Source: Octopus vulgaris
Taxonomy: Eukaryota
Length of the DNA stretch: 64,000 bases
Assembly: GCA_951406725.2 (NCBI GenBank)
Contig: OX597840.1
Location: forward strand, 14,570,001-14,634,000
Direction: 5' to 3'
The position numbers and the translations under genes were made by a program. Shown piece by piece: positions 1,906 through 63,493 of the stretch. The notes beneath the pieces were generated by a model that worked only from the letters and a program-made list of their open reading frames with translations, was not told the DNA's origin and did not search any database. The number at the start of each line of letters is the position of its first letter. Position 1 is the stretch's first letter.

Positions 1906-2924
1906 CTCTCATCTATATGTATGTGTGTGTGTATACATATATATACACACACACAGTACAGAACTAAAGTAATACAAAGCAAAATAACAATAAACAAGAA
2001 TATAAATATTTAATATCAATAGAATCTTTATTGCCTGAAAGTTTCAAATTTCATTCTGGTTGTGACATTATTAACCCTTATACAGATTGGTCGATCTGTT
2101 AGCCTGCCATAATTCTACTCGAAACCAGACCAGGCTGATATCTTCAAGAATATCTATAATATTCTTTGTCGACCAAGATTCAGATATTTTATTTCCAGAG
2201 TTTTAAATAATACCCCTCTTTCATTCATTTTGAATTGTGTCATAAAAATGATTTCACCTGCTTTAGTATCTAGAAGCCTCAACGAGTTTCATGTCCACAG
2301 GGTTGAATTATATTTCGTTCCTATAAGGAATAAAACTGGAATGGAATGGAATTGTGGATATACTTCAATATCTTTCTTCTTCATCACCATTGCTTCCATC
2401 ACCACGATCATCGTTGTTATTATCATCATCATCATATTCACTATCATCACCACCACCACCATCATTACTACTGCCATAATCATCATTACTGCCATCACCA
2501 CCGCCACCATCATCATCACCGTCAACATCACCATCATAACCACCTTCATCACCACCACCTCCATCAACATGTCGTTCTCTATCCTAGCTGTCCATGGGTT
2601 GCCTGTGTGTCATCTCTAGTACAGTGTCTTGCCATTTATTGTAATCCTCTCTCATCTCCTTTGTAAACTTCAACTTCCTGAGATCAAATTTCACTGCTTC
2701 TTCACCTATATTCCTCTTTGGTATTCCTCTTCTGTAAATTTCTCTCATGTTGGTCCCTTCTTGCTCCTTCTTCACCCAAACCTCATCCTCCATGTTCACC
2801 TCACATCTTTCCTCCTGCACACTCTTCTCCCCTGCATGCTTCTTCTTACATGTGATTTGCACCTAATCTTTCTCTCAGTTTATTTGTCCTCTGTTGTCCA
2901 TGGACACCAGTGGTTCTCAACCAG

Positions 2925-3445
2925 GGTCTTCAATGTGAAGGGGTCCCAATGCAAATACATATATCTTTTTTCCAGTGACGAAAAGTCACTTATCTTGAAA
3001 AAGTGTAAACAAGCAATAATAATTCTCTGAGCGAGGTATAAACAGTAGCTGCACGACAATGTGAAGTATATTTATCATTTAAATGTGGCTAACCACTAAG
3101 GGTGGATACCACTGTAGTTTGTAGCCCAGGAGAACATCATCTCCAGTTGGCTATTGACACACTTTCTGTGCCCTATCAGTATTTGCAAAGGGAAGCCATC
3201 CTTCTCATCTCCAATCTGATGTGATATGCATGGACCCTGCTTTCTGGGTATTTACCCGTTGTCAGTGCACTACAATCACCGGTCTTTGATGCGAAGGGGT
3301 CCCAATGCAAATACATATATCCTTTTCCCAGTGACGAAAAGTAGCATCCACCCTTAGTGGTTGGCCACATTTAGGTGGCAAATATACTTCACATTGTTGT
3401 GCAGCTACTGTTTATACCTCGTTCAGAGATTTATTATTGCTTATA
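2925..3445 (-). mobile_element. Penelope-like pseudo-LTR fragment with partial tandem and inverted duplication
   Basis: Direct repeat 2925-2986 vs 3281-3342; inverted repeat about 3011-3108 vs 3346-3442; HHR-like motif at 3227-3270 (-). Confidence 0.65.
3227..3270 (-). ncRNA. Degenerate type I hammerhead ribozyme
   Basis: Minus strand: gtgca CTGACAA c-gggta-aa-taccc-a GAAA gcagg GTC catgca. Core differs from CUGACGA by one CpG transition; stems I and III are imperfect. Confidence 0.55.
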
Positions 3446-3872
3446 TATTAATAATCATAACAAGGGATTGGCAATAAGCCTCTCCCCATGCTGGAAAAAT
3501 AGATGCCAATAGACGCTATTACCACCTTGAGATCTCCGAGAATACCACACGGGGTTGTAGGCGAGCAAAAGAAAGATGATAAATTAAACTTTTGGTTAAC
3601 CATGTACAAGATCCTATTTCAAGTAAAGAAAAATATTGCTCACTGCTCTCATCAGCAACGATATTCCATAGAATAAATTTACGAGAATCCACACATATGC
3701 ATAGATGCCAATAGACGCTATTACCACCAGCCAGTAAATGTGCACACTCGTAGAAATACACAGTAAAGTAGAATTCACATCACCTTTTTACAACCACATG
3801 TACTATGCAGTAGTTTTTATTTCTGCGCTGAACCCCTGGTAAAATCATTAATGATTTTTATCCTTTATTATA

Positions 3873-11244: not shown

Positions 11245-11280
11245 GTGCTGATGAGGCCTGATAGACTGAAACAGGTCTAT
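11245..11280 (+). ncRNA. Minimal hammerhead-like core, weak stem I
   Basis: gtg CTGATGA ggcc-tgata-gact GAAA c-ag-GTC tat; all core nucleotides present, stem I only about 3 bp. Confidence 0.45.
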
Positions 11281-25009: not shown

Positions 25010-27065
25010 ACATATACATATGAGTACCAGTTGAATACTGGGGTCAGTATACTTGACTAGTGACCTCCCAACAAATTTCAGGCCTTGTGCCTATAATAAA
25101 AAGGATTATTGTTGTTGAGTCTGCATTGCTCTGGGTGTATTTCTTTTCCTTCCTTTCTGCCTTCTGTATGTGCATACATTCGCATGCATATGTGCATGGT
25201 TCTGAGTGTGTACAAATGTATGGCTATGTCTACGTAAACATGTTTGAGAGGGTGTCACATCCGACACCTTCTTTGCATGTACCATTTCTATCTCCTATTT
25301 ACTCCATCTTATGGCTTAGCACTCTGTCACCATTCATATTGTGGTTAATTTGCATAACAGGGATTATATTAGCACAAACTTAACACTGTATTTCATATTT
25401 TTTAATGAGAACACTGATGAGGTGAATTGATGAGATTATGCAATTTGGCCGAATGCTAGTGTAATTTTGTCAGTCGATTTACTGAAAGACATATATGTTT
25501 AATAAAGCATGGAACACCAGTTATGTTTGCTGTAGATTTATATTAATACTATATATCTGTGTACATACATATATGTATATCTAGTTGATTTAAGTTAATT
25601 GCATACACATATTCACTTTTACATATGGTAGATTTCAGATAATTATACACACACACACACACACATGCACACACATGCATGCACATACACACACATACAC
25701 ATATGCATGCACACATACACACATGCATGCACATACACACACATGTGCAACACATGCATGCACATACATACACACATACACGTGCACACACATTCATGCA
25801 CACACACAAACACACATGCACATACATATGCACATAGACACACACATGCAAATACACACACATGTGCAACACATGCATACACATACACATGCATGCACAC
25901 ATACACATGCATGCACACACATTCATGCACATGTACACACATTCATGCACATGCATGCACACACAAACACACACATATGCACAAACACACACATGCATGC
26001 ACATACACAGACATGCATGCACATGCACACACATACATGCACACACATACATGCACACACATACATGCACACACATCCACTGTTCATCTCATTTAATTGT
26101 ATACCCGGCTACTGTATAATTTGGATAATTGCAAGACTTTTCAAAACACCATTTAACATCAAATTTATACAAAATTGATTGGTTAATTGTTTATGCAAAT
26201 ATATTAAATTTCAGTTAAGTGCAGATTTCTTTTTCTTTTTTGTTTTGTTCCGATTCCAATTAAAAAAAAATTGTACAGTGGAGCATAAAATTTGACATTT
26301 ATTTGATTTGATATCAAATAAACTGAAGAACCTTCTGTTTTCGGATGAGTTAAAATGACAGTAGGCAGTAATATTTTATGTTTACAAACAACCAATATCA
26401 AAAGAATCAAATGTATTCATGTTATTCTTACCATTTCAAAGCATTAAAGATTATCTAAAACTCAGGTTCCAGTCTGGTTTTGTCTTTTATTACTTTCATT
26501 TGTTCAATGAAATTCCTCAACAAATAAAATTTCATAGCAGCTAGAATTTCTAAAAAGTCAGTTTTCAATTATATGGTGAATGAATACTATTTTCTTGTAT
26601 ATATATTAGTGACAGGAAGTATTAATACCAAAAGGTAATATTTATTCCCACTTTAAAATAGTTGTTCTGTTAGAACAAACTATACTGCTGTGGTTTCCAC
26701 AAGAGAAACTCTCATACTGGCTTTTGATGCAAAATGCATTCTTGTTTGTATTGCTAGCAGGGAGATAAATCCTCGCCACCTCCAGCACCAAGACCACCAG
26801 GTCACATGATTTCAACCTTCTTTGGTCCTGTCAATGATGGACACTCAGTTGCTTGGGACAGCAGCAATTCTTCACCCCACCTGCAATGTATAGATTGACA
26901 GTGCCTGTTCTGGCACTGCCAATCTATATCATTAGCTTTATTCAACTTATATATTATTCTATACACATTTACACAAATTTGAAACAAAATGTACATATAT
27001 ATACACAAATATACATACATATAAATATATATATACTTATATACATACATACATGCATAATTATG

Positions 27066-36212: not shown

Positions 36213-37045
36213 AATGTCACACAGTATCCAATATCATGATGTTGTTGATTGAAGACATTGTGTCTACTGGGGGTTTGTAGTGTCAAGTGACAAGGACCTC
36301 AGACAGTACTTTATACAGTATGTGTGTTATTCCAAGTAAAGCTGATTATTGTAGTACACCTAGATTGTAGGGTATGTCAAATGTTTCCAGATGTTTCTTC
36401 ATATTGGGTGGTATAGAGCCCATTGCTCTGATAACAACAGGGATAACCTTTATGTTTGACTCTCGTAGCTGCCACATCTTGGCAATCTCAATTCTCAGGT
36501 CTTTATGTTTATTAATCTTCTCTCTTTCATTCATATGTTGCTCTCCTAGCATTGCCACGTCAGTTATTAGGCATCCTTGTTTGTCCCTTGTTTGCGGTAG
36601 CACGTCCACCTCCCAGTCGTTTCGGCCCGCACGGTTCCTCCGAGGGTGCCCTTCGCCGAGTGTCCGAGGCGGCTGGTATGTTCACTGTGAAAAAATTAGA
36701 ATGCTCAGAATGAGCCCCACTCTAACCTTCAATGCTCTAACACCTTGTCTTTCTGGAAGTCAAAGTCCCAGAGGATTTTTACCTTCCCATTTTCATCCAT
36801 TAACATTTTCCAGTGTATGTTGGTACCAAGCACCTGTTACCTCATATCCATACTTCCGGCATAGTAGCCATTGAAGCTTTTGGGATACTTAGTCATGTCT
36901 GTGCTTGTACTCTTTCTGCGCAAGACTTTCACAAACTCTAGCAATGTCAGTCATGCTTTCAACCCTTTTCCCACACATTCTGCAGAGGCTCATTGCACTT
37001 GTGTGGTGTATATCCCTTTGCACTGATTGCTCAATCCAGTGACAG
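36210..37045 (-). pseudogene. R4/Dong-clade non-LTR retrotransposon 3' end (CCHC knuckle plus restriction-like endonuclease)
   Basis: LCRMCGKRVESMTDIARVCESLAQKEYKHRHD*V...KILWDFDFQKDKVLEH...CLITDVA...EKINKHKDLRIEIAKMW...VIPVVIRAMG...LQ*SALLGITHIL; 3' end abuts (TAA)n, as is typical of Dong. Confidence 0.9.
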
Positions 37046-40395: not shown

Positions 40396-41046
40396 CATTA
40401 TGGCTGCCCCCTCGTTATCGAGTATAGCCATTGCACGAAGCTTAACTGTTACTGGTGCTGTGATCGAATGTGACTTTTTAGCCCAGCTAAAGATCTACGA
40501 TGTCTTGTACAAAATTGGCAACTAAAACCTTTACCGGTAATAGCCGGCTGTAGTTGTAACTGGGCTTCATGTACCTTTGCATGTCGTTTAAGTCCTCCTG
40601 CCGAATTACACTCTCTTCCACATGCGTGACAGATATGATTAGTATGGTGTGTTACACCACCACCAGTGGCCAGGTTGTCACTCATCTGTCTCGTTTTATG
40701 ACTACGAAGATGACTCTTGAGTCCAGCTTTACTGAGGCAGGGTCTTGCACAGACACTGCATGTCAGCATCATACGAAGACCCTTCCCATCTGGAAGTGTA
40801 ACAGCAATGCCCTTCCTGACATCCCTCCTTACTTTCTCATGTGCAACTCGAGATTTCTCAAACATGGCTGTCCCCTCATGCACAATCCTTCTCCACCTAG
40901 TAGCTATGCCCTCCCATGTGTCAGGAGAGATGCAAGCATCTCTTAAGGAAGCCTTCAGCAAGTCCTTATACCTCTTTTTTGGTTTATGTGGAGGTCGTTC
41001 TCCTTTAGCTAACTCTCCATAAAAGAGTTGTTTTGGCATCCTTGAA
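40396..41046 (-). mobile_element. 5'-truncated RTE-clade LINE; open C-terminal ORF (40449-41046) with three C2H2 zinc fingers
   Basis: RMPKQLFYGEL..G.R....PKKRYKD.LK..L......TWE..A..W is the RTE post-RT signature. Fingers: CSVC..LKSHLRSH, CHAC..LKRHAKVH, CQFC..LKSHIRSQH. 3' UTR stem-loop atggct..ctcg-ataa-cgag..agccat and (ATGT)n tail. Confidence 0.9.
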
Positions 41047-41058
41047 TACATACATACG

Positions 41059-41111
<53 letters not shown>

Positions 41112-62141: not shown

Positions 62142-62676
62142 TGACTATATTTTGATGAATTTCTGTTAGCTTGCTTTCTTTGTTTTAACACATGGTGTAA
62201 TAATACAAGTGAAAATATTTTATGTTGTCAGACAATTTAGCATCTGATTTACAACATATTGGAAGAGAAAAATTTTTTTCTCTTGCCCTTATTTATAATT
62301 ATATTTATAATTTTCATCTTAAATGGTATTTTTCATATCCTGGCCACTGATAACATTTTTTAAGAAAATTTTATCCTTATATTACCGGAGCCTGGTGCAG
62401 CCTTCTGGCTTCCCAGATCCCCAGTCGAACCGTCCAACCCATGCTAGCATGGAGAACGGACGTTAAACGATGATGATGATGATGATGATGATTAGAAGTG
62501 TATATATATATTGTTATCACCATATTAATATGGCAGTCTTATAGATATAAGACTAAAAGCTGTCGCTGATTAGCTCCGTGAGGCCATCGCCTTAAGCTAG
62601 CTATTTGACACACAAACTGCGTCCATTATAACCTTTGAACAAGGGAGGTCAGCCGTTTCACACTGCTAGTCAGACA

Positions 62677-62719
62677 GCTTCAGACACGTTTCAGGGTATT
62701 TGCCCCTTGTCAATGTAGC
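62677..62719 (-). ncRNA. Minimal type I hammerhead, decayed by transitions
   Basis: Minus strand: gctaca TTGACAA gggg-caaata-ccct GAAA cgt GTC tgaagc; reconstructs to CUGACGA...GAAACGCGUC. Confidence 0.65.
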
Positions 62720-62843
62720 GTAGTCGACCCAGCAGGTGTCGCCACTGATCATCTCTGTTCGAAGGTTTTATTTACCTAGTTTCTGTGGAATACATCCACT
62801 TGTTTTCAATAATAGAAATATTAAAATTACTAAGTCTCTCTAA

Positions 62844-63022
62844 GAAGACAGACAAGCAGGAAGGAAAGGTCAAGTTAAGAGTGCGCGTCATAATTATTGA
62901 AATAAAACTTACTTGGAAGAGGACACGTGGTGTTATGTATGCATGTTTTATTTATTAAATTGTTATTATATGATTGAATGTCACACGTCCTCTTTCAAGA
63001 GAGACTTAGTAATTTTAATATT

Positions 63023-63059
<37 letters not shown>

Positions 63060-63283
63060 GTTTGTGTGTCTGTGTTTGACCCCACCAGTCATTTGACTGC
63101 ATCCATGCTGGAGCACCGCTTTTAGTCGAGCAAATGGACCCCAGGACTTATTCTTTGTAAGCCTAGTACTTATTCTATTGGCTCTTTTGCCAAACCGTTA
63201 ATTTACAGAGACGCAAAAACACCAACACCGGTTGTCAAGTGATGTTGAGAGAACAAATACAAACATACAAACATATAGACACT

Positions 63284-63323
<40 letters not shown>

Positions 63324-63493
63324 AAACTTACTTGAAAGAGGACGTGTGGCATTCAATCATATAATAACAATTTAATAAATAAAACATGCATACATAATAC
63401 CACGTGTCCTCTTCCAAGTAAGTTTTATTTCAATAATTATGACGCGCACTCTTAACTCTTTACTTGACCTTTCCTTCCTGCTTGTCTGTCTTC
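62844..63493. repeat. Inverted repeat (62844-62999 vs 63331-63493) with a family A SINE fragment in the spacer
   Basis: gaagacagacaagcagg...ctttcaag vs cttgaaag...cctgcttgtctgtcttc. Confidence 0.9.

Follow-up and report, generated by a model that had tools for sequence, protein, structure and literature searches.

Background

Retrozymes of a size similar to the repeat described here, and a link between them and Penelope-like elements, have been published (PMC7229834; bioRxiv 10.64898/2026.07.22.740005). In the available text of these sources, metazoan non-LTR retrozymes are tandem copies with one type I hammerhead per unit (PMC7229834; bioRxiv 10.64898/2026.07.22.740005), the monomer being non-coding and 350-390 bp long in mussel, its predicted circle highly self-paired, and Penelope-like elements present in the same genome (PMC7229834). 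Penelope elements, for their part, are known to carry a tail at one end and inverted truncated arms; according to the accessible portions of the same papers, the EN+ pseudo-LTRs of the Neptune clade combine a partial tandem with an inverted 5'-truncated arm, have a one-end tail of 30-40 nt and a hammerhead near the 3' end, and occupy (TA)n targets (PMC8557442, PMC3846280). The hammerheads of Penelope-like elements, as presented in the available part of another study, have a dimer-forming palindromic stem III and an extra base between A9 and G10.1, and a variant with a U3-A8 core has been reported among them (PMC4209133).

The protein of the green anole element Poseidon-Ac cuts and extends both strands of AT-rich DNA, and its two internal RNA starts downstream of the hammerhead match genomic ends with and without the tail; it needs only RNA +20 to +172, hammerhead cleavage being dispensable (PMC11167929). 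Poseidon-Ac is autonomous, its starts lie in an AC-rich stem-loop within its own ORF, and in vitro, as the available text of that study describes it, the start site was the same on both strands and used no primer homology (PMC11167929).

The questions addressed here concern the copying of animal retrozymes into DNA and the features by which a Penelope RT recognises its RNA. Within a 64,000-nt stretch of octopus DNA (the window), a sequence-only reading had described a hammerhead and a downstream motif, present in two copies (A and B), and had placed copy A in the pseudo-LTR of a Penelope-like element. We find that this locus is a decayed copy, on the minus strand, of a 357-nt ORF-less hammerhead-bearing repeat (family A). 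Our main reading, to which we assign a probability of about 0.7, is that it is a retrozyme-like copy that was likely moved in trans by a Penelope-like RT/endonuclease, with a conserved RNA fold that likely binds this protein and sets two internal start sites. Both the element class and the insertion geometry are already known and the window copy is dead, so that it is the head fold and the statistics of the ends that are of value; a conserved fold tied to two start sites is apparently undescribed. Freely accessible full texts, searched for cephalopod retrozymes and for a head fold of this kind, yielded no paper on either subject, and the combination of a five-family head fold with two fixed internal ends apparently goes undescribed in the available text on metazoan retrozymes (PMC7229834; bioRxiv 10.64898/2026.07.22.740005).

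Results

The locus and its parts

Table 1. Features of the two copies in the window. Monomer positions (+) are counted from the predicted hammerhead cut.
Feature	Position	Strand	Description
Sense arm	2925..3342	-	418 nt = 1.17 family A monomers, +248 via the cut site to +309
Inverted arm	3340..3442	+	103 nt, monomer +121 to +223
Type I hammerhead, decayed	3221..3279	-	Stem I with 3x1 internal loop, core 3265-3259, stem II, GAAA, stem III; G8 to A at 3260; stem III palindrome disrupted at 3240 and 3238; predicted cut 3233/3232
UCCCUU-containing strand	3174..3200	-	Predicted 3' part of long rod helix; predicted partner 3293-3319 (pairing across the hammerhead) or, in the next monomer, 2937-2963
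Head hairpin P1	3156..3172	-	GRCACA/UGUGUC, 5-6-nt loop; conserved sequence, no two-sided change
Head stem P2	3122..3153	-	UAGCY/RGCUA, 4x3 internal loop AKCU/UGG, 6-bp covarying stem; apical loop GAU(G) at 3138-3135
Head domain P3	3042..3115	-	8-bp helix, 3115-3108 with 3049-3042, 6/8 pairs covary; encloses GCCA/UGGC hairpin (3089-3074) and main end site of family copies (3065-3058)
Tail hairpin and tail end site	3010..3035	-	CUC..GAG hairpin 3035-3025; second, 'tail' end site 3017-3010
Copy B (family B)	about 62510..62848	-	364-nt monomer, U3-A8 hammerhead core; ends at main site; accompanied by a 36-nt inverted stub at 62990-63025 ending at the tail site

The motifs proposed for copy A from the letters alone were located on the minus strand where they had been placed: CUGACAA at 3265-3259, GAAA..GUC running to 3233, UCCCUU at 3193-3188, the hairpin at 3172-3156 and UAGCC..GAUG..GGCUA at 3153-3122. 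Stem II, which had been drawn with a 2-nt loop, consists instead of 4 bp with a loop of 4 nt. The tandem-plus-inverted, Penelope-type geometry was also recognised correctly, with a direct repeat of 62 nt (2925-2986/3281-3342, 92% identity, spacing 356) and an inverted repeat slightly longer than first given (3011-3113/3340-3442, 103 nt, 90%). The direct repeat is the two ends of the sense arm, an overlap from copying more than one monomer, and the inverted and sense arms meet head to head with a 3-nt overlap at 3340-3342. The outer end of the inverted arm is a 'tail' end continuing into TA-rich DNA, while the sense arm stops at the non-canonical +309 against a hAT-like terminus, an end that is probably a later truncation; the adjoining 15-nt motif at 2908-2924 (plus strand) is what we take to be a hAT-like terminal motif. 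The same 15-nt motif (L138:2071) follows a family D copy ending at the cut site. Relative to the family A majority the sense arm carries 31 differences, 10 of them of CpG type.

The downstream structure is common to copies A and B. Their resemblance exceeds chance: 100 of 158 aligned columns are identical and the alignment scores 102, where the best of 1000 dinucleotide shuffles reached 55 (60 against a shuffle maximum of 41 for the motif part alone). A duplicated unrelated repeat piece (62844-62999, 63254-63493) lies between the sense arm of copy B and its inverted tail stub. Taken by itself, the window copy of family A folds no better than shuffles (z -1.32). In 2800-3600 the curated Rfam covariance models gave no match to the head fold and no hammerhead match at E up to 10, with two weak unrelated matches (E 2.6 and 9.2); over the whole window there were 239 Rfam matches, the 150 listed being miRNA/snoRNA-type matches on simple repeats.

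Five related families of closed monomers

A search of the genome (2.8 Gb, 227 contigs) with copy A gave 662 candidates, 40 of which were scored, and the 39 other full-length matches are 87-90% identical; a closed 357-nt monomer was defined from 30 loci (L001-L030). Family B, with a 364-nt monomer, is represented by 2730 candidates (loci L031-L060; its counts leave out L045, L046 and L049, which overlap L039 and L034). With a pattern designed to exclude A and B there were 12 matches, against 0 in its control, and these led to families C (361 nt) and D (353 nt); family E (350 nt) was found by a covariance model. The A and B majorities are 56% identical, far above shuffles; identities between family majorities range over 55-86%, and pairs among A-D score 9-42 SD above 200 shuffles, from which it follows that the families are homologous and not convergent.

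With non-coding monomers of 350-364 nt, inside the span of about 170-400 nt expected of non-LTR retrozymes, each bearing one type I hammerhead, the five families resemble the metazoan retrozymes and their mussel monomers in the available text of PMC7229834. The octopus copies differ in being mostly dispersed insertions of 0.6-2 monomers with inverted arms, not long arrays, and their circle is a prediction. In 50 of 113 loci the arms are longer than a single monomer, reaching 3.75 units, and no long tandem arrays were found in the sampled loci. The longest ATG ORF is 18-55 codons across the five families. The unit is a closed monomer (357 nt in family A), with no ORF above 55 codons in any family, which lends no support to the reading of the locus as the pseudo-LTR of an element with an ORF.

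With a looser stem pattern there were 121 matches, as against 6 in its control, and those listed are, by appearance, mostly indel variants of the same families. Three loci (L145, L162 and L167), whose head-bearing variants have diverged further and stand between A, D and E, suggest that more than five families exist. Outside the assembly, a metagenome search gave one match, with its inner stem unpaired and no model match, and viral contigs gave 43 pattern matches that by eye are without the upstream hairpin. Among RNA records a family B query had no holder listed; contigs of four RNA runs contain family B pieces, a kind of record that cannot show expression, ends or circles.

The hammerhead

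The family A majority is a real type I hammerhead motif, with the core C3-U-G-A-N-G8-A9, G12-A-A-A and an NUH triplet; its cleavage is a prediction. In it the core CUGACGA is restored, as are stem I and the palindrome of stem III, which bears out for the family the hammerhead claimed from copy A, in which the core fails through the change of G8 to A. Position 8 is G in 25 of 34 family A segments and A in the other 9, a pattern of CpG decay; 19 of 30 loci keep the CUGANGA core and 8 of 30 have the strict pattern fully intact. Families B and C have instead a U3-A8 core, as in the Penelope-like hammerheads (PMC4209133); in family B the U3 is compensatory to A8 (U3 in 41/42 and A8 in 42/42). The octopus motifs share with those hammerheads the dimer-forming palindromic stem III and the extra base between A9 and G10.1, and differ from the motifs in the available part of that study in a stem I of 6 bp with a 3x1 loop and an outer helix, in a short stem II like that of canonical metazoan type I hammerheads, in a C at position 4 in most of family D (20/32) and in the AUA triplet of family E (PMC4209133).

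Stem III is self-complementary in all five families although its letters differ, four being perfect palindromes and D having a central mismatch, and its self-duplex is calculated at -4.8 to -14.9 kcal/mol. The window copy is predicted to be inactive as a ribozyme because of the G8 to A change and because two stem III changes weaken this self-duplex (-2.3 against -14.9 for family A). Dimers of B, C and E are predicted to take the active hammerhead fold, but in A and D another dimer fold has the lowest energy. In loci that were selected as spanning the hammerhead, the cut site shows no excess of 5' ends (8/182 against about 8 expected), and the DNA therefore gives no sign of cleavage.

A rod and a branched head

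Folded as circles, all five family majorities are 7.4-9.5 SD better than 40 shuffles each, again resembling the highly self-paired circles of metazoan retrozymes. The predicted circle has the same layout in every family, a rod of 44-49 pairs enclosing the hammerhead, to which UCCCUU belongs, plus a branched head. The downstream motif of the sequence-only reading is real, but it makes up about one third of a larger conserved fold. In the GAUG stem 4 of 6 pairs covary, but the 6-bp hairpin P1 is conserved in sequence, with two-sided changes at none of its 6 pairs.

Covariation was counted in 20 real copies of A-D in an alignment blind to structure, for 29 named pairs (580 cells). Pairing is kept in 91.9% of the cells against 84.1% in shuffles and 31-45% in slid controls, and two-sided changes occupy 69 cells against 25 in shuffles. 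Besides the GAUG stem, covarying pairs fall in P3 (6/8) and the UAGCY/RGCUA stem (1/5), with none in P1 or in the GCCA/UGGC hairpin (0/4). The number of pairs with a two-sided change, 11, was also reached in 98 of 500 shuffles, and since the families are related the covariation amounts to a handful of events and the cell counts are inflated. RNAalifold independently recovers P1, P2 and P3. In family E and in one subfamily of A the apical loop is GAU closed by C-G.

Two sites at which copies end

The free 3' ends of the copies fall mainly at two sites, in windows that were set after the data were seen: of the 45 ends in family A, 24 lie in the main window (+165 to +176) and 18 in the tail window (+217 to +231); of the 39 in family B, 20 lie in the main window (+173 to +179) and 17 in the tail window (+233 to +239); for C the counts are 10 and 11 of 27, and for D 16 and 3 of 28. 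Near the cut site there were 0, 0, 1 and 1 such ends in A, B, C and D. The main site lies within P3 just 3' of the GCCA/UGGC hairpin, about 10-16 nt from it in A-D, and the tail site follows the CUC/GAG hairpin. Most 3' ends continue into (TA)n, the targets being rich in TA/CA. Main ends in CA repeats were seen at 6 of 22 family A loci and 0 of 20 family B loci, in agreement with the letters of the RNA where the start lies (p 0.02), and short primer-template pairing may guide priming, unlike the result obtained in vitro with the anole protein.

Of 55 inverted blocks in all, 15 have a non-canonical end and were left out; among the 40 with two canonical ends, 38 join a short end to a tail end. 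If family E, for which the query spanned the tail, is set aside, the count is 25 of 27 (p 2.8e-6). A point that the literature makes qualitatively thereby comes to constrain the integration mechanism. Partial tandem, inverted truncated arm, one-sided tail and microsatellite target are all present in the family copies, and in each of these, as well as in the hammerhead near the 3' end, they are like the Neptune-clade pseudo-LTRs in the available text of PMC8557442 and PMC3846280, from which they differ in having no ORF and in a tail of 45-65 nt. They are like Poseidon-Ac in having two internal starts that match genomic ends, in the cut site not being an insertion end and in the use of both DNA strands; they differ in that their two arms use different sites (PMC11167929, available text).

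A search for an autonomous partner

The window itself gave no match to an RT/GIY-YIG ORF. In a search for GIY-YIG families, 150 of 6136 candidates were scored and 20 larger regions examined. A young autonomous two-ORF family of Neptune type with many intact copies was found (L103-L110; L106:641-5460, G000:C6:133343000-133351000). In L106 a 781-aa RT/GIY-YIG frame with a Cys linker of Neptune type is intact, overlapped by an upstream 479-aa frame with no convincing Pfam match. This family has (TA)n targets, a U3-A8 hammerhead with a 6-nt palindrome, and a two-end pattern like that of the repeats, with ends about 70 nt past the cut and an added tail of about 35 nt, and two of its inverted copies show the short-plus-tail arrangement. 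Its terminus shows no likeness to the head beyond shuffles, and the octopus family termini have no sequence match in the sampled autonomous families.

A covariance-model scan of 50 GIY-YIG loci met only three separate repeat insertions and no head belonging to those loci, and 14 loci of another Penelope family gave no head-model match. Among these 64 loci (some overlapping), drawn from the best GIY-YIG matches, 150 of 6136 candidates having been scored, and from one further family, no partner sharing the terminus was found; in none of the RT/GIY-YIG loci tested, the kind of element that the sequence-only reading had suggested looking for, does the motif form the locus's own end. A hammerhead pattern excluding A-E gave 0 matches. 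Beside L064 lies a divergent Penelope family that was considered as a partner and rejected, having its own small hammerhead and no head. Other Penelope-like families (L238-L251; L093; L076/L117) likewise have small hammerheads of their own and lack the head fold.

Discussion

Because of their Penelope-like end geometry, the octopus families are best read as non-LTR retrozymes moved in trans, and we infer such mobilisation from the two-site priming of the anole protein, from the known tails and inverted arms of Penelope elements and from the position of the head in the equivalent stretch of RNA. In the proposed mechanism, transcripts of tandem copies would be cleaved by pairs of hammerheads that dimerise through the palindromic stem III, and would be circularised. 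The protein would cut both strands of a microsatellite and prime from each end, with one start at about +174 and the other in the tail site (+218 to +238), on circular or uncut multimeric RNA as template, consistent with the arms longer than one monomer. A few matching bases would then let the two cDNAs join head to head, giving the tandem-plus-inverted layout.

As for the head, we tentatively propose, at somewhat less than even odds, that P1, P2 with its internal loop and the P3 junction form a recognition and initiation platform that captures the Penelope-type RT, the halves of a dimeric protein using the two start sites asymmetrically, one for each end of the double-strand cut. If true, this would be the first covariation-defined cis element for the telomerase-related RT class, and would name the step that returns animal retrozyme circles to the genome. 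The five natural variants, with their compensatory changes and base-level start sites, are ready test substrates.

The head could instead owe its conservation to the needs of the RNA circle (stability, ligation, export or escape from decay), the retrozymes being moved by Penelope-type proteins with starts set only by unpaired AU-rich linkers matching the microsatellite primer. This is consistent with structure that spans the whole monomer beyond the head, with the location of both end sites in AU-rich linkers, with the difference in CA-repeat ends between A and B, which agrees with the RNA letters, and with an autonomous family that has two sites and no head fold; yet the most conserved single-stranded letters (AKCU/UGG and GAU) and the helices lie within the equivalent of the anole minimal template (PMC11167929, available text), and the main site keeps a nearly constant distance from the GCCA/UGGC hairpin, so that we regard it as unlikely, on the order of one chance in a few. 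A little less probable still is an origin of the inverted arms by self-priming or fold-back on an antisense template in place of priming at both DNA ends. Self-priming was proposed for rotifer Penelopes from junction palindromes (PMC3846280, in its accessible part), and some junctions here do lie in local palindromes or helices (e.g. L160, L168, L009), but the outer ends are sense-strand start sites abutting microsatellite in the short-plus-tail combination, and the anole protein cuts and extends both strands.

That the copies represent what is left of the pseudo-LTRs, truncated at the 5' end, of a Penelope-like element with an ORF, the head being its terminus, seems highly improbable to us. 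Upstream of the hammerhead the aligned copies run into the previous monomer and not into an ORF, each of the five families closes into its own unit of 350-364 nt, and tblastn on 142 head-bearing loci found RT/EN pieces in just 6, from different families and in no fixed arrangement. On the other side, Penelope insertions have exactly this geometry (PMC8557442, PMC3846280), such termini are the probable source of retrozymes according to the available text of bioRxiv 10.64898/2026.07.22.740005, and a parent could have been missed, 150 of 6136 candidates having been scored.

Other identities were rejected by inspection against known consensus features: a SECIS element, HDV-like, twister or pistol ribozymes, Pol III A/B boxes and an octamer promoter (the octamer occurs in A only). 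GAUG as a start codon was set aside, no ORF following it, as was a 30-bit model match at window 26597-26766, by eye without the motif. Elsewhere in the window a hammerhead-like string at 11248-11277 (plus strand; CUGAUGA, short stem, GAAA, CAG, GUC) is apparently decayed and gave no match to the head-fold covariance model, and at 36346-36874 and 40449-41111 open frames of 111-220 aa resemble, by eye, pieces of non-LTR retrotransposon ORFs.
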